DNA of 11,546 nt from a virus (lineage: Duplodnaviria > Heunggongvirae > Uroviricota > Caudoviricetes). A model generated the notes under the pieces. The model had not been told where the DNA came from. It made no database searches and saw only the letters and a list, made by a program, of their open reading frames with translations. The position numbers were made by a program, and so were the translations under genes. Shown here piece by piece: positions 1 through 11,389 of the stretch. The stretch is from the IMG/VR virus record IMGVR_UViG_2703718868_000005, one strand, 5' to 3'. The stretch's first letter is position 1; every line of letters starts with the position of its first letter.

Positions 1-4
1 TACC

Positions 5-34
5 ACAAATAAAAAAGCCTTCAGAACAGAAGGC
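5..34 (-). terminator. Rho-independent terminator downstream of the 21..218 gene
   Basis: Minus strand reads GCCTTC-TGTTCT-GAAGGC (plus 17-34) followed by TTTTTT (plus A-run 11-16). The hairpin overlaps the TGA stop at 21-23. Confidence 0.45.
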
Positions 35-218
35 GTCTGTAACAACCGAACTGATAGTCTGCCAGACCCGCCATAACAAGCTGGGTCAGTATTAGCTGGC
101 AGCGTTCGCGTGAAAGGTACGTATTCTGTGCAATCTCCCCGACAGTCGCCGGTTCGGTGGCACTTAATTCATTAAAAACCACTCTGGCGGTTTCGGTCAT
201 ATCCTGCTGTTTCAGCAT
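21..218 (-). CDS. Hypothetical small protein with a winged-helix/HTH-like segment (ATVGEIAQNTYLSRERCQLILTQL)
   Basis: ORF-track frame 21..311 begins with GTG. First ATG at 216-218 is preceded by AAGGGA about 7 nt upstream. Followed by a terminator. No family recognised. Confidence 0.45.
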   Translation of the reverse strand: MLKQQDMTETARVVFNELSATEPATVGEIAQNTYLSRERCQLILTQLVMAGLADYQFGCYRRLLF

Positions 219-391
219 GTCTTTTTCCCTTTTCCGGTTAACGTGACACACCAATAACTCTTGTCGAAAAAGCCAGCAAGCTGAAAGACCGGTATTAATA
301 ACCACCTGCACATTTTATGTACTGCACCATTTTTCTGGCATAAAAAAACCGCTCAATGCCGGGCAGTAAAATCTTTATTACTCAGGAAATT

Positions 392-664
392 TTAACGTAC
401 TCTGACAGTATTAATTTCAAAATCATTAATATTTCCGCTATTAAATATAACGAATTTCTTACCCCCACTCCTGTATGATTTCGATAACACCAGACGATCA
501 TCATAGCGCGCAATAATGTAATACCATACATTCTCATAGTGGACCGCCTGATATTCCCTCTTAAACTGTGGTTTGTACCAACCGGCAATAAGAGAGAATG
601 CCCAGAAATAAATCATAAACCCAGCCATCATGAACTCAATTCGGTGATGGCGAATAACAGACAT
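392..664 (-). CDS. Hypothetical small membrane-anchored protein (one predicted TM helix FMMAGFMIYFWAFSLIAGWY, K/N/I-rich C-terminus)
   Basis: ATG start at 662-664. Lies in very AT-rich DNA (about 30% GC) where long ORFs are unlikely by chance. No recognisable family and a weak RBS. Confidence 0.35.
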   Translation of the reverse strand: MSVIRHHRIEFMMAGFMIYFWAFSLIAGWYKPQFKREYQAVHYENVWYYIIARYDDRLVLSKSYRSGGKKFVIFNSGNINDFEINTVRVR

Positions 665-926
665 TTCCGAAAAACATTTGACTGAAACAAGTCTTCTTCC
701 AGACCTGACAAAAAGCGTGATTGCAAAGGCAGCAAGAACACAGAAAAACTGTCACAGCATAAAACAAACTTCGTGCCACATCATCGACACCAGCCCCGAC
801 AACCCACCATGGAAAGCCATAGTAAAATGAAGTACCCCATCCATAGAAATAAGCGCTCCCCCATCCGAGACAGCCCATATAAGCAACAAAAAGTGAAGAG
901 TTTCTGAGCAGAGCACTGTCATCCAT
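636..926 (-). CDS. Hypothetical Gly/aromatic-rich hydrophobic small protein
   Basis: ATG at 924-926 with GGTG about 6 nt upstream. Unusual G/W/F/Y-rich composition. Overlaps the alternative frame 752..994, so the coding assignment is uncertain. Confidence 0.25.
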   Translation of the reverse strand: MDDSALLRNSSLFVAYMGCLGWGSAYFYGWGTSFYYGFPWWVVGAGVDDVARSLFYAVTVFLCSCCLCNHAFCQVWKKTCFSQMFFGNVCYSPSPN

Positions 927-1068
927 AGTAACACCATTAACAACTCAAAAATATCAACACACATTACATAACAAATTGGATTCCATGCAGTCAAGGGGCG
1001 TCATTGATGGAGAAAGTATTGGCACAATCGTCATCACGTTTAATGTCTATGCCATTTTTTGGGGGGGT

Positions 1069-1094
1069 AAAAAACCCGCTCGGTCACGGGTTTT
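1069..1094 (-). terminator. tR'-like intrinsic terminator downstream of the Q-like gene
   Basis: Plus-strand AAACCCG (1072-1078) pairs with CGGGTTT (1087-1093), flanked by an A-run on one side and a T-run on the other, so it could act in either direction. Sits next to a G7 homopolymer at 1061-1067. Confidence 0.4.
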
Positions 1095-1139
1095 AGTGGC
1101 TTTGTCATCACGTATAATAACGGCAAAATATCAGATTTA

Positions 1140-1175
1140 CACGAAACATATGCCTTTTTATCTACTTTTGCAATA
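1140..1175 (-). promoter_or_regulatory. Candidate late promoter (pR'-like) immediately downstream of the Q-like gene
   Basis: On the minus strand: TTGCAA (plus 1167-1172), a 17-nt spacer, then TATGTT (plus 1144-1149). A hairpin terminator follows about 50 nt downstream. Identified by position and motif only. Confidence 0.3.
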
Positions 1176-1180
1176 CTTTG

Positions 1181-1846
1181 CTATGAAAATGCCGCCTTTT
1201 GTTTTGAACGTGTTCCCTCCACCAACAATAAAGCTTCACTATCCAGCCGATGAAAAATGTGTTTCATTGCAACCCAGTGACCAGTAAATGTCTTGGACCA
1301 GTTTTTGGTTGTTACTCCCACCAGTAACGCCAGTTCCTGGTATTCGTAACCTTCCCCACCAAAAAGCTCAGCTTTTACCGCCTGCGCCGCCAACCAGATC
1401 AACGTCTTCAGGCGCACCAGAGTTTTTCCTGCAATTTTTCTGGTACCGGATTGAGCATTAAATTCAGTCCACGCCCACTGCGTTATCGCGATCTGATGGT
1501 CCCAGCAAATGCTACCGCTGTAACACCACTGCAGCCAGGCTTTATGATGTTCTTCAAGAGACAGAACGGCGCGTCGCCATGATGATGTCGAAAACTCAAC
1601 CGGACTGACCAGCGCAATTGATGAGCCTTTCGCCAGTGATTGTTTACCCGGGATCGGTGGGTTATCCCGCGTGATCATTTTTCCGGTTACCTCATCGCGG
1701 TAACGAATTTTTTTGCGTCTGTAACGCCCTGTATCGAACAGGGCATTTTCCTGCCAGGCTTCCAGCTGGCCTTTTGTCGACCCACTGAGATCCGCAGTGG
1801 CAATCATGAGTTGCTCACGAACAAACTGTAAATACTGGTTATTCAT
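1181..1846 (-). CDS. Putative late-gene antitermination protein (Q-like), assigned by position
   Basis: 221 codons from ATG 1844-1846 with SD GAGGTGGG. ORF-track frame extends to GTG at 1852. Lies directly downstream of rusA and upstream of the promoter/terminator pair, as Q does in lambdoid phages. No sequence motif confirms the family. Confidence 0.55.
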   Translation of the reverse strand: MNNQYLQFVREQLMIATADLSGSTKGQLEAWQENALFDTGRYRRKKIRYRDEVTGKMITRDNPPIPGKQSLAKGSSIALVSPVEFSTSSWRRAVLSLEEHHKAWLQWCYSGSICWDHQIAITQWAWTEFNAQSGTRKIAGKTLVRLKTLIWLAAQAVKAELFGGEGYEYQELALLVGVTTKNWSKTFTGHWVAMKHIFHRLDSEALLLVEGTRSKQKAAFS

Positions 1847-1867
1847 GCACACCCACCTCTGTAATTC

Positions 1868-2200
1868 TTATCTCCAGCCGTCCACCAGATACTGGCTGCC
1901 ACGTACAATATTGATTTCATCAAACTGCTCATCGTCCATTAACAACCCCGCGTGCGTCAGCGCATCCAGCGGTGCTTTCAGAATATTGTCCAGGTCACGG
2001 CGGCGCTTATCCGGTGGCTCTGCAATAATTTTTATTGCCAGCCGTCCGGACAGGCTTAATTTCAGTCGCTGCTGGCGAACAATAAGCGCCACTGCCCGGC
2101 GATAACGCTCCCCGGCTTTTGATACAAAATATGTGCTGCCACGGCGTCGCCAGTAAGTGTTCACCGTCGGCGGGTAAGGTAAAACCAAATCTATGAGCAT
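1868..2200 (-). CDS. rusA: Holliday junction resolvase RusA
   Basis: 110 aa with the RusA hallmarks PPTVNTYW, YRRAVALIV and DKRRRDLDNILKAPLDALTHAGLLMDDEQ. Strong SD AGAGGTGA about 5 nt upstream of the ATG. Confidence 0.9.
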   Translation of the reverse strand: MLIDLVLPYPPTVNTYWRRRGSTYFVSKAGERYRRAVALIVRQQRLKLSLSGRLAIKIIAEPPDKRRRDLDNILKAPLDALTHAGLLMDDEQFDEINIVRGSQYLVDGWR

Positions 2201-3586: not shown

Positions 3587-3814
3587 TTATAGCTGCTTCT
3601 GAATATCATCAACAGGTAATCCTGCCAACTCTCTTACCTCAGAAAGAAGAGAAAGGCTTACAACAACCTCATTACTTCGCATAACAAAACCACATTGAAA
3701 AGAACCATCACTGTTTCTGTAAACAACAACCGGGCGCATGCTCTCATAAAACCCCGGGATCAAACTGGCTGGGATTTTCACAACACCTCCTGACGTAAAG
3801 GAAATGAAATGCAT
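3587..3814 (-). CDS. Hypothetical small protein with an AbrB/MazE/SymE-like motif (GGVVKIPASLIPGF...SDGSF)
   Basis: 75 codons from ATG 3812-3814; ORF-track frame starts at GTG 3859. The motif resembles swapped-hairpin (AbrB-fold) proteins. Occupies the position of rem in K-12 Qin. Similarity not verified. Confidence 0.4.
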   Translation of the reverse strand: MHFISFTSGGVVKIPASLIPGFYESMRPVVVYRNSDGSFQCGFVMRSNEVVVSLSLLSEVRELAGLPVDDIQKQL

Positions 3815-3979
3815 TATCGCTTCTCTCGGACTATAACCATGAAAAGAGACGCATTTCACTCAGTAAATCTGAGGATTTTATGCGCAAGAACAATGACTTT
3901 TTCTGTCTGCCGTTTATACAATCTGAATTACGTCTGTTTTTTGAACACCGATAAATCAGCAAGCATTCTCAAATAAAGA

Positions 3980-4037
3980 TTGCCTCCATAGTCCACATGG
4001 TGTAACACTATGTGTTATATAAAATGCAGAGGCAGGT
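3980..4037 (+). promoter_or_regulatory. Putative promoter/operator of the type II TA operon
   Basis: TTGCCT -35-like element (3980-3985), TATAAA -10-like element near 4018-4023 and an imperfect inverted repeat GTAACAC-N3-GTGTTAT (4002-4018) lie just upstream of the toxin SD GAGG. Typical site for antitoxin autoregulation. Confidence 0.35.
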
Positions 4038-4410
4038 ATGCGAATTTTCAAAAACGCCTGGTTTGAACGTTTCGCCCGAAAACATCGGATTTCCGATAAA
4101 TCGCTGCGCAAAATCGTGGAACAGGCCGATAAGGGGGATCATATCCGCAAATTTGGGTAGTGGTGTCATTAAACAAAGATTAGCCCGAAGTGGTGGCGGA
4201 AAATCAGGCGGTTACCGGACAATAATTTTTTACCGCGTTGCAGAAAAAGCCTTTTTCATCTACGCATACGCAAAGAATGAACGAGAGAATATCACTGCTA
4301 TAGAGGAAAATGCTTTTCGAAAAGCCGCTCCCCATGTCCTCAATCTTACTGATGAACAGCTGGCACAATTGATTCAACAAGGCCAGTTCACGGAGGTACC
4401 CAATGAGTAA
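4038..4410 (+). pseudogene. RelE/ParE-superfamily (HigB-2-like) toxin gene, frameshifted at a G5 run (4133-4137)
   Basis: Frame from ATG 4038 gives MRIFKNAWFERFARKHRISDKSLRKIVEQADKG, then a TAG at 4158. The rest of the toxin (IISANLGSGVIKQRLARSGGGKSGGYRTIIFYR...FFIYAYAKNERENIT) continues in the +1 frame to the stop at 4408-4410. Removing one G restores a single ORF of about 123 aa. Confidence 0.7.
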
Positions 4411-4720
4411 AAATTACCGCAGTGATGCACTTGCATCTGTACATGAAATGATGGAGTCACTCCATGATATCGGTGCAATCACAAAACAAACTATGCGCGA
4501 ATTCGATGAAACTTGTCTTCAGCCTGCGCCGGTAATGTCTCCGGAAAGGATCCGTGCACTGCGAGAACGAGAGCATCTGTCTCAACCTGTTTTTGCCAGA
4601 TACCTCAACGTCAGTAAAAACCTGATATCAGACTGGGAACGAGGAGTGAAACGCCCGGGAGGTGCAGCTCTTCGGCTTCTTTCAGTTGTCGAGAAAAACG
4701 GGATCCAGGTAATATCCTGA
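4403..4720 (+). CDS. HTH-type antitoxin (HigA-2-like) partner of the upstream toxin
   Basis: 105 aa. ATG overlaps the toxin stop (ATGAGTAA) and SD GGAGG sits 6 nt upstream. Motifs SQPVFARYLNVS...DWERG...PGGAALRLL match antitoxins paired with HigB-2-type toxins. Confidence 0.85.
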   Translation: MSKNYRSDALASVHEMMESLHDIGAITKQTMREFDETCLQPAPVMSPERIRALREREHLSQPVFARYLNVSKNLISDWERGVKRPGGAALRLLSVVEKNGIQVIS

Positions 4721-4822: not shown

Positions 4823-4978
4823 TTACTCCTCAGGTTCGTAAGCTGTGAAGACAGCGACCTCCGTCTGGCCGGTTCGGATTCGTACCTCGCAGAGGTCTTT
4901 CCTCGTTACCAGTGCCGTCACTATGACGGTTAAACAGATGACAATCAGGGCGATTAACATCGCCTTTTGCTGCTTCAT
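4823..4978 (-). CDS. hokD: Hok-family type I membrane toxin (HokD/RelF-like)
   Basis: 51 aa, MKQQKAMLIALIVICLTVIVTALVTRKDLCEVRIRTGQTEVAVFTAYEPEE, matching HokD/RelF as I recall it. SD AAGGAG upstream. An in-frame upstream ATG at 5035 gives the 70-aa ORF-track frame, at the position of mok. Confidence 0.9.
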   Translation of the reverse strand: MKQQKAMLIALIVICLTVIVTALVTRKDLCEVRIRTGQTEVAVFTAYEPEE

Positions 4979-5026
4979 AGCCTGCTTCTCCTTGCCTTTC
5001 GGCACGTAAGAGGCTAACCTACATGT

Positions 5027-5095
5027 GCAAAGCATGAAATTGGCCTCAGATTAATGTTAAGCGTCCTGCAAGACGCGTAATGTTAACTGGGGCTT
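5027..5095 (+). ncRNA. Possible Sok-like antisense RNA opposite the hok leader (position approximate)
   Basis: Inferred from hok/sok locus architecture. Weak promoter-like TTGCCT-17-TAACCT at 4992-5020 and a hairpin GCGTC-CTGCAA-GACGC at 5061-5076 on the plus strand. Exact ends not determinable from sequence alone. Confidence 0.2.
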
Positions 5096-5249
5096 TTCTC
5101 TGTCTGCCTTACGGCGGCATGCCCGAGGCAGACAGCCTCAAGCACCCGCAGCAATTCTACTTAACTCTTCTTTCCCCGCAAATCATTTTATCCCCGATGG
5201 TAATGTTCTCCCGATATGGGAATTCCCATATCAAGGTTAACTCAATCGG

Positions 5250-5801: not shown

Positions 5802-5962
5802 GATAACGCCCTCTGGTTGATGAATTTAACTATCACCACCTTCAGGTCTCAATCATCAGGTGGCGAGACGTACAGGGTTGAGACTACCGGATCAACCAAC
5901 CGGCCAGCCTTTCGGCTGCCCCATACGCCTCACCATAATTCAGATGTGCGTGCGCATACGAC

Positions 5963-5987
5963 AATAAAAAACACGCTCGCGGCGTGT
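5963..5987 (-). terminator. Rho-independent terminator ending the replication-side operon
   Basis: Minus strand reads ACACGC-CGCGA-GCGTGT followed by TTTTTATT. Confidence 0.6.
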
Positions 5988-6072
5988 GTCTGTCGCGGTT
6001 GAATATCCGGGGTCTCAATCCCGACGGTCAACTCGACCGTGCGGTGAATATAGCCCCGGATTAGTAATTACG

Positions 6073-10452: not shown

Positions 10453-10821
10453 ATGGAATTTAAAGATTTACCAGTACCATTCCAGGATATGGCAGCGAAT
10501 ATAGTTCGTTCTCAACTGGCGACTCTTGACCTGAGTACCGTAGAAAAAGAAACCATCGACAATATATCCCATAATGTGCGTAATGCCTTTATCAAGCTGT
10601 ACGAAGAGAAGCTGAGTTCTGAAAACAAAGATTATTCACCTAAATTCACCCCACACCCAGGTGGAGTGAGTGAGATTTATCATGAAACAATGGTTAAAGC
10701 ACTACGTATGCAAATAGCCGAACTTGAACATAAATTAAATTTAGTTAGTAAGTGCCAAAATCAGCACAAGGCAAAAGGGTTGCACTTTCATCATAAGGGC
10801 AAACAAAAATGTGAGCATTAA
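10453..10821 (+). CDS. Hypothetical protein in the ydfB/ydfC position
   Basis: ATG at 10453 with SD GAGG 6 nt upstream. The low-complexity basic C-terminal tail overlaps a convergent gene. Confidence 0.55.
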   Translation: MEFKDLPVPFQDMAANIVRSQLATLDLSTVEKETIDNISHNVRNAFIKLYEEKLSSENKDYSPKFTPHPGGVSEIYHETMVKALRMQIAELEHKLNLVSKCQNQHKAKGLHFHHKGKQKCEH

Positions 10822-11047
10822 CACCAACTGAATTAGCAACAGAAAAGGTTTGTTCAAGTATTTGATTCGAATTGAGCGTTGACTGAATAACGTATGCCCC
10901 TGGCAACAATTTATATTCAACGTCACCTTCATTAATCATCCTGGAGTATTTAAAATTTGGCATCAGAGTCTCGAACTTTTTCTCCTGTTCCATTGTTGCT
11001 TCAAATAACTGCACATGAACATAATATCGATTTGATTTAGAGTGCAT
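10745..11047 (-). CDS. Hypothetical protein encoded in an AT-rich island, function unknown
   Basis: 100 codons from ATG 11045-11047 with strong SD GGAGGA 5 nt upstream. AT-rich relative to its flanks. 3' end overlaps the ydfB/C-like gene by about 77 bp. Confidence 0.5.
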   Translation of the reverse strand: MHSKSNRYYVHVQLFEATMEQEKKFETLMPNFKYSRMINEGDVEYKLLPGAYVIQSTLNSNQILEQTFSVANSVGVNAHIFVCPYDESATLLPCADFGTY

Positions 11048-11389
11048 TTTATCCTCCATAGAGGTTCTGGGTTAAAAATGGAGACCAACACGCTGTCACG
11101 TGTGGTCGTGCGCCGGACACGGATAAGAATCCGGCACTGACAGTTTACTGAAAGAACATATCCCTGAAAAGTCAGGGCATAACACGAAAGCGCACGGCGA
11201 AGTTAGTCTCTCTGTATATGTCGTCGTTAAGTTTAATTCGATCGTGCGCTTCCGGTTGTGGCAATCCGCGAAATGGCGCGGCGGTAAGTATGGCTGGGGC
11301 TTCCTCCATTGCTCCAGAAAATGCACCGGGTTGTCAGGTTGACCATACGCCTGAGTGACAACACCGCCACAACAACCTCTGTTATCACT

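Follow-up and report, generated by a model that had tools for sequence, protein, structure and literature searches.

A TfpB/STM1630-family cargo gene, very probably broken by a 179-bp deletion, in the AT-rich block downstream of Q in an Escherichia coli lambdoid prophage

The locus and its AT-rich block

The DNA analysed here, referred to as the window, is a stretch of 11,546 nucleotides from the IMG/VR virus record IMGVR_UViG_2703718868_000005 and was found to be part of an Escherichia coli lambdoid prophage, whose early-to-late genes lie on the minus strand. The subject of this study is the AT-rich block at 330-1068, downstream of the late antiterminator gene Q, which an initial annotation had interpreted as three small, overlapping, possibly novel membrane-protein genes under the control of Q. 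Our analysis indicates that this block is very probably one accessory cargo gene of the TfpB/STM1630 family, located after Q and the late-control elements pR' and tR' and broken by a deletion of 179 bp.

Over positions 1-2300, the window matches strain CFIAFB20190157 at 100% identity and, at 99-99.9%, many genomes of E. coli that make Shiga toxin (STEC) and are negative for the enterocyte effacement locus (LEE). The gene order in these RefSeq records is DUF968 protein, RusA, antiterminator Q, "hypothetical protein" and a 65-aa hypothetical protein; past the left edge of the window, a DNA methyltransferase, tRNA-Ile/Arg, more genes and a SASA-family esterase follow. The features of the window are compiled in Table 1.

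Table 1. Coordinates of features in the window and the basis of their assignment (positions are those of the whole window; ORF, open reading frame).
Feature	Position	Strand	Basis
Hairpin terminator after the 65-aa ORF	17-34	-	Terminator search and RNA fold
65-aa late-operon ORF after the cargo gene	21..218	-	phrog_331, E = 5e-37
Pseudogene of a 237-aa TfpB/STM1630-family inner-membrane protein, 535 of 714 bp left	392..926	-	Alignment to STEC1585 WP_000342737.1
ORF of 90 aa: residues 148-237 of the real protein, from an internal Met	392..664	-	Translation
ORF of 96 aa: residues 1-60 of the real protein and 36 out-of-frame residues	636..926	-	Translation
Deletion junction, 179 bp	746..747		Pairwise alignment and junction analysis
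ORF of 80 aa with TTG start: overlaps the 5' coding region and promoter out of frame, not a gene	752..994	-	Translation
Promoter-like motif of the cargo gene: -35 TTGACT 989-994, 18-nt spacer, extended -10 TGtTATGTA 965-973	965..994	-	Sequence reading
tR'-like intrinsic terminator, AAAACCCGU-GACCGA-GCGGGUUUU + UU	1069..1094	-	RNA fold
pR'-like late promoter: -35 TTGCAA 1168-1173, 17-nt spacer, -10 TATGTT 1145-1150	1145..1173	-	Sequence reading
Late antiterminator gene Q, 82-type, 221 aa	1181..1846	-	PF06323 Phage_antiter_Q, E = 7e-91; phrog_304
sok antitoxin RNA	4973-5147	-	Rfam, above gathering score
C4 antisense RNA	5856-5940	-	Rfam, above gathering score
isrK Hfq-binding RNA	5966-6040	-	Rfam, above gathering score

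The block has a GC content of 40.2%; the values for Q, the window as a whole and the region 21-218 are 48.8%, 48.2% and 50.5%, respectively. The block is moderately AT-rich, and its earlier description as far more AT-rich than the neighbouring genes was overstated, as the stretches 3600-4400 and 10500-11100 of the window are equally AT-rich. On the plus strand, a strong excess of A was evident, with an AT skew of up to +0.43; this agrees with a coding strand rich in T, which a membrane-protein gene would be expected to have.

All three of the previously proposed ORFs are present, each on the minus strand. They do not represent separate small genes; two are fragments and the third is an off-frame shadow of a single gene of 714 bp. 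The frame of the shadow ORF (752..994) differs from the conserved N-terminal reading frame, which is under purifying selection, and RefSeq carries no annotation for it.

The 179-bp deletion

In most near-identical genomes, the match to the first 2300 bases of the window was split into two pieces spanning approximately 2480 bases. Pairwise alignment of window positions 300-1200 with strain STEC1585 revealed base-for-base identity apart from one gap of 179 bp, and in STEC1585 the same region is a single intact coding sequence of 714 bp for a protein of 237 aa (WP_000342737.1; L002:6392-7105). The missing segment corresponds to nucleotides 181-359 of the gene, i.e., codons 61-120, and its loss shifts the frame. 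At the protein level, what is lost is the greater part of helix 2, loop 2, helix 3 and the beginning of helix 4. A search for repeats or microhomology that might explain the deletion yielded nothing beyond a microhomology of 1 nt at the junction.

In the 100%-identical strain, RefSeq labels the gene "hypothetical protein, frameshifted". Of 5426 complete E. coli genomes, exactly two matched a 44-nt probe spanning the junction, namely CFIAFB20190157 (Canada, food) and STEC1587 (China, human), implying that the lesion is real and rare. A functional member of the family would need an ORF of approximately 237 aa encoding five helices and a C-terminal beta domain, which the copy in the window does not provide. 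The gene in the window is dead and its DNA is now a mere transcribed spacer in the late operon. At this locus, the supposed novel cargo has turned out to be a degraded remnant with a frameshifting 179-bp deletion, the very outcome that the initial annotation had named as speaking against its proposal.

In rusA (1839-2200, minus strand), a 1-bp deletion near position ~1898 relative to STEC1585 frameshifts the RusA resolvase, and RefSeq likewise records this gene as "frameshifted". This is a second inactivating lesion, less than 1.2 kb from the broken cargo gene, and these two signs of decay fit a decaying prophage copy.

Late-control module and expression signals

The gene directly upstream of the block is named "bacteriophage antitermination protein Q" in RefSeq and its product shares 77% identity with the Q82-like Q encoded by phage 434. 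With a PF06323 Q directly upstream and a promoter-like element plus a terminator before the first late gene, the arrangement is that of 82-type late control. The pR'-like element aligns with TTGCAA-17-TATACT, located in the equivalent position behind Q of phage 434, and probably acts as the late promoter; its consensus score of 8/12 is the reason why it was missed by the consensus promoter scanner. The leader sequence, too, could be aligned with that of phage 434. The tR'-like terminator is composed of a 9-bp stem, a 6-nt loop and a U-tract. Folding of the 71-nt stretch gave z = -3.6, with none of 200 shuffles folding as well, and the record of phage 434 annotates a terminator at the corresponding place; by its predicted structure, the hairpin would end a short late leader. 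With these data, the promoter/terminator pair of the initial annotation was corroborated.

The homology shared with Q modules from sequenced phages, namely PPompW and Stx2a-type records, was found to stop at 1069-1071. As this is exactly the end of tR', it marks a mosaic joint between the late-control module and the AT-rich block.

A search of window positions 1-1400 against Rfam returned no family at threshold. A sub-threshold match to the Salmonella island small RNA isrJ was seen at 1070-1141 on the minus strand (20.1 bits versus a gathering score of 37, E = 0.67), almost perfectly coextensive with the predicted pR' leader RNA (start near 1138, tR' end at 1069). It may be due to chance or may hint that isrJ-like small RNAs derive from prophage late leaders.

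Upstream of the cargo gene itself, a Shine-Dalgarno-like GGTG at 932-935 precedes the start codon (926). Further upstream, the blocks CTCTTGAC and TTTGTTATG are kept in front of the homologues in phage 434, in E. albertii, in four other E. coli prophages and on a plasmid of enterotoxigenic E. coli (ETEC), with the DNA flanking these blocks diverging among the homologues. The motif TTGAC(T/G)-18-TGtTATG accompanies the gene also in places that lack an upstream Q; the upstream DNA of the chromosomal copies of Salmonella and Citrobacter is different. This pattern of conservation suggests that TTGACT-18-TGtTATGTA may be the gene's own sigma-70 promoter. Exclusive control by Q appears unlikely, given that the motif is conserved without an upstream Q and that the homologue in Salmonella is equipped with a promoter of its own (bioRxiv 10.1101/689075). 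A CII-binding site annotated upstream of 434 gp68 was considered as a further shared feature and rejected, the TTGY-N6-TTGY pattern not being kept in the window.

For intact alleles, two transcriptional inputs can be envisaged from the arrangement of these signals. The gene's own sigma-70-type promoter would allow expression in the lysogen and, after induction, Q-modified RNA polymerase would read through tR' toward the tRNAs and lysis genes.

The TfpB/STM1630 family

When the deleted segment was restored, the protein matched phrog_1521, whose function is unassigned in PHROG, with E = 3e-85 over residues 17-237. The search for homologues retrieved 104 proteins, nearly all of 237-238 aa when complete, and all of them carry the label PF27470 "TfpB"; this membership rests on precomputed labels of the homologues, as the version of Pfam-A searched had no PF27470 model. 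RefSeq names some copies "STM1630 family protein". The family is already catalogued under these three names, which removes the novelty suggested for the ORFs. Of the two kinds of search proposed earlier, those against family models yielded, for the restored protein, PHROG families of unassigned function alone, and a fold search of the PDB gave no match for the intact protein. No Pfam, PHROG or NCBIfam match linked the restored protein to the lysis-protein families holin, endolysin and spanin, in agreement with the previous view of a membrane-type product unrelated to them.

The N-terminal helix motif A..LGWGSAYFYGWG.S.YYGFPWW of the family is present in the product of ORF 636..926. Pairwise ratios of non-synonymous to synonymous substitution rates (dN/dS) among 13 copies ranged from 0.05 to 0.22 in 15 of the 16 pairs, dS being saturated in the 16th (Salmonella versus C. 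rodentium). Together with 104 homologues of similar length, these ratios indicate a real gene.

The family is small, with 71 matches in a profile search of 1.84 billion representative proteins (representatives at 50% identity) and six loci in a scan of 185,579 species genomes. Its members were found in Enterobacterales (E. coli, Shigella, Salmonella, Citrobacter, Enterobacter, Klebsiella, Cronobacter and Yersinia), Pasteurellaceae (H. ducreyi, Avibacterium, Actinobacillus, Gallibacterium, Pasteurella and Mannheimia) and Neisseriaceae, nearly all of the hosts being animal-associated bacteria. Profile searches for distant homologues returned proteins of the same architecture only, from Enterobacterales, Pasteurellaceae and Neisseriaceae.

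The Pfam name presumably refers to tfpB, an ORF of unassigned function located where the pilin genes of Moraxella bovis and M. lacunata undergo inversion. No Moraxella member occurred among the homologues from the profile searches, no paper on a Moraxella TfpB was retrievable, and no consistent pilus-gene neighbourhood was seen in the family neighbourhoods examined. A very distant metagenomic PF27470 member (L027, 5001-9048) lies among unknown genes, three genes upstream of a protein with a prepilin-type N-methyl domain, which is the sole pilus-related neighbour seen for the family.

NCBI's name "STM1630 family protein" derives from STM1630 (SL1344_1560) of Salmonella Typhimurium, which shares 46-47% identity over 238 aa and the PF27470 label with the restored protein. 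STM1630 is AT-rich and horizontally acquired, adjoins the virulence gene sseJ and has its own promoter, whose -10 box is disrupted in ST313 (bioRxiv 10.1101/689075). It is induced in macrophages and groups with genes of Salmonella pathogenicity island 2 (SPI-2) in regulon analysis (10.1101/689075, 10.1101/450098, PMC2639726). Unlike the gene of the window, STM1630 is chromosomal, is not part of a prophage late operon and has a different upstream region.

Predicted architecture of the intact protein

An AlphaFold2 model of the intact protein, built with 51 homologues, reached a mean predicted local distance difference test (pLDDT) score of 79.4 and a predicted template modelling (pTM) score of 0.73. 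It comprises helices at residues 10-36, 47-78, 89-111, 116-138 and 155-181, followed by a five-stranded C-terminal domain at 184-235. Across the 51 members, the mean net charges of the loops were -1.6 (loop 1), +2.0 (loop 2) and +2.4 (loop 4). The predicted topology places the N-terminus in the cytoplasm, loop 1 outside, loops 2 and 4 inside and the C-terminal beta domain of ~60 aa in the periplasm; hydrophobicity and the family-wide loop charges fit this arrangement.

Helix 1 is the most conserved part of the protein, being almost invariant and rich in Tyr, Trp and Phe. Along it runs a stripe of small residues, S11, A15, G21, A25, G29, S33 and G37 in the 51 members, a pattern that is typical of tight helix packing. 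Near-invariant residues in the family as a whole are exclusively small or aromatic (A15, A25, Y26, G37, P39, F167, G175 and Y195), and hence there is no sign of a catalytic site.

Genomic contexts of the gene

In every lambdoid prophage examined, no other ORF lies between the late antiterminator and the cargo gene, after which tRNA-Ile/Arg and then the lysis genes usually come. The antiterminator upstream is a PF06323-type Q in this prophage and in strains A35, 135 and TUM9803, a 273-aa "antitermination protein" in strain OkiPb01705 and a DUF1133 protein in strain E7-1N7. The GC content of the gene is 36-42% in every context, versus approximately 49-55% in the flanks. Like a moron, the gene is present or absent between conserved flanking modules and deviates in base composition. 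The idea of a cargo slot between Q and the lysis genes was strengthened by these comparisons, with the gene being first after at least three differently annotated antiterminators and homology breaking off exactly at the end of tR'. Comparative genomics of related elements, as suggested beforehand, also revealed conservation, since an intact gene occupies the same position in related prophages and in phage 434.

Of the 50,697 phage records searched, 434 and 2B8 are the only carriers of a homologue. The product of phage 434, gp68, a "putative membrane protein" (UMO75332.1, OL657226; also in phage 2B8), is 56% identical over its full length and fills the same slot, its ORF being the first one behind a Q82-like Q and terminator, with the same promoter-like motif upstream. 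Unlike the copy in the window, it is intact and resides in a plaque-forming phage, where TciB and a SASA esterase come next, versus the 65-aa ORF and methyltransferase in the prophage of the window. The announcement of the 434 genome describes morons only in general terms (PMC9119081).

Outside of phages, the Salmonella copy adjoins sseJ and frmR/alcohol-dehydrogenase genes, and that of Citrobacter rodentium adjoins lpxR at the corresponding chromosomal place. On ETEC plasmids, the homologue lies divergent from eltAB and near STb, among insertion sequence (IS) elements. The virulence plasmids of Shigella and enteroinvasive E. coli (EIEC) also carry the family, with 106 Shigella plasmid records. 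In Pasteurellaceae and Neisseriaceae, the copies lie in unrelated housekeeping neighbourhoods, and in none of the family neighbourhoods examined was a conserved partner gene found. Broken copies are common: CFT073-like strains harbour a remnant that is frameshifted and lies next to a phage-type tRNA-Arg near iro, one copy is truncated by an IS element, and many clusters are partial. The gene is non-essential and often decayed.

Chromosomal members from Salmonella, C. rodentium and other Enterobacteriaceae (L012, L013, L029 and L031) share one conserved place next to genes of an frmR-like repressor and a class III alcohol dehydrogenase, the neighbour on the other side varying (sseJ or lpxR, as given above). 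The gene lpxR is also found just upstream of Q in phage 434.

Interpretation and alternative explanations

Cargo between Q and the lysis genes is well known from lambdoid phages, with stx of Stx phages, tRNA genes and nanS-p esterases as examples. The gene described here shares with these the slot and the expected read-through by Q-modified polymerase, and the order in this prophage resembles that of Stx phages, with Q, methyltransferase, tRNA-Ile/Arg and, further downstream, the SASA esterase. It differs from stx in not being a toxin gene and in having a putative promoter of its own. Judged by annotation, stx was found neither in the slot of this prophage nor after the cargo gene in the related STEC strains checked. 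Past the left edge, the spot equivalent to that of stx contains a 142-aa ORF annotated "TolA", a methyltransferase pseudogene and a helix-turn-helix (HTH) gene (L001/L002, 4609-4770 and 3902-4330). Classical morons, such as bor and lom of lambda and gp15 of HK97, are likewise accessory genes of deviant composition between conserved phage modules, encode envelope proteins and are dispensable for phage growth; no own terminator was detected here, no sequence or fold relationship of the intact protein to bor, lom or HK97 gp15 was found, and the gene is not known to confer exclusion or serum resistance.

That the three ORFs are independent, overlapping small membrane-protein genes, and as such novel Q-controlled cargo, is hardly credible. 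All three are open and hydrophobic and lie downstream of pR'/tR'. Nevertheless, two of them become collinear with one 237-aa protein once the 179 bp are restored, the third runs off-frame over a region whose main frame is under purifying selection, and related genomes have a single long ORF in their place; moreover, the fragments match only parts of the full-length family (phrog_17164, residues 1-84; phrog_3985, residues 160-237). Equally remote is an assembly or sequencing artefact that would conceal an intact gene. The record matching at 100% identity is a "whole genome shotgun" chromosome and the nearby 1-bp indel in rusA could be a sequencing error, but the same junction recurs in a second, independent complete genome (STEC1587) and is devoid of repeats able to collapse an assembly. 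It is very unlikely, if slightly less so, that the truncated 96-aa product is still made and keeps or changes the activity of the family, e.g., as a dominant-negative form or a minimal oligomerising helix. The allele occurs in two unrelated isolates from China and Canada, its promoter-like motif, GGTG and start codon are intact, and helix 1 is the best conserved and best modelled part of the protein (pLDDT about 90). Against this stand the rarity of the allele, the loss of most of helix 2, of helices 3-5 and of the C-terminal domain, and the frameshifted rusA and other pseudogenes in the same prophage copy, which fit general decay. We regard the broken single cargo gene as the very probable explanation of the block.

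As to the function of the intact protein, no conserved polar or catalytic residue and no conserved partner gene were found, which argues for a protein that acts alone and is non-enzymatic. We tentatively consider it a stand-alone, probably oligomeric inner-membrane factor of lysogenic conversion, serving in envelope protection or exclusion and not in lysis or the virion. A lytic-cycle role is less likely, because many settings outside phages hold an intact copy, almost no sequenced phage has the gene, and in prophages it is often broken. A helper of the phage lytic cycle, e.g., in lysis timing or as a holin accessory, would agree with a small multi-helix membrane protein encoded by the first gene of the late operon and with the glycine-zipper-like helix, which is found in many pore formers. 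We judge this explanation improbable, since tRNAs and other cargo separate the gene from the holin/endolysin cassette, each prophage has its own holin, and the gene is often lost or broken in prophages; furthermore, just two of the phage records searched carry it, and intact copies reside in Salmonella and Citrobacter chromosomes, on Shigella and ETEC plasmids and in the housekeeping neighbourhoods of Pasteurellaceae and Neisseriaceae. Extending the conversion-factor proposal to the whole family is more speculative still: its members might be an unrecognised stand-alone envelope factor, e.g., a non-enzymatic, oligomeric inner-membrane protein that keeps out phages or toxins or fits the envelope to the host, repeatedly captured by lambdoid phages, by virulence plasmids of ETEC and Shigella and by Salmonella islands, and in prophages wired to a lysogen promoter and Q read-through in the stx slot.

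Several results weigh against reading the gene as a conversion-type moron that is now inactive. The restored protein had no match in the version of Pfam-A searched or in NCBIfam, and PADLOC revealed no significant match to a defence model (best AbiC, E = 0.24, 8.9 bits). The putative own promoter is a conserved, consensus-like motif that the generic scanner did not report. No significant terminator hairpin was found after the gene at 320-400 on the minus strand (fold z = 0.15), the next one being at 17-34(-), and with no clear terminator the gene is not a textbook self-contained moron. Deletion of STM1630 caused no defect in macrophage replication (10.1101/689075). In one screen, an STM1630 mutant was hypermotile (PMC4219756); in a further report, the mutant was rebuilt without the resistance cassette and re-tested for motility (PMC4534456). 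Finally, the 96-aa stump in the window retains its expression signals, start codon and conserved first helix, which leaves a very small chance of residual activity.

For the window itself, the outcome has little meaning: three supposed novel genes were corrected to one annotated pseudogene, an ordinary one of a catalogued cargo gene (moron). The family is a modest lead, being small, strongly conserved and functionally blank, and it sits in the stx slot of Stx phages, beside the LT toxin genes of ETEC plasmids, beside sseJ and on the virulence plasmids of Shigella. Broken and intact alleles in otherwise near-identical prophages provide natural strain pairs for tests of its function.

Other features of the window

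The 65-aa ORF gave weak winged-helix hits of the TrmB/MarR type (best E = 1e-3), which were below the cut-off. It follows the cargo gene in some prophages and is absent in 434, strain 135 and E7-1N7, and is on these grounds considered a separate small module.

In the early region, annotation transferred from the identical RefSeq record places a RelE/ParE-family toxin with an HTH partner at 4012-4720 on the plus strand and the type I toxin hokD at 4823-4978 on the minus strand, with ORF6N and DUF1627 genes further on. The three RNAs matched in Rfam (Table 1) lie on the minus strand, that of sok next to hokD.

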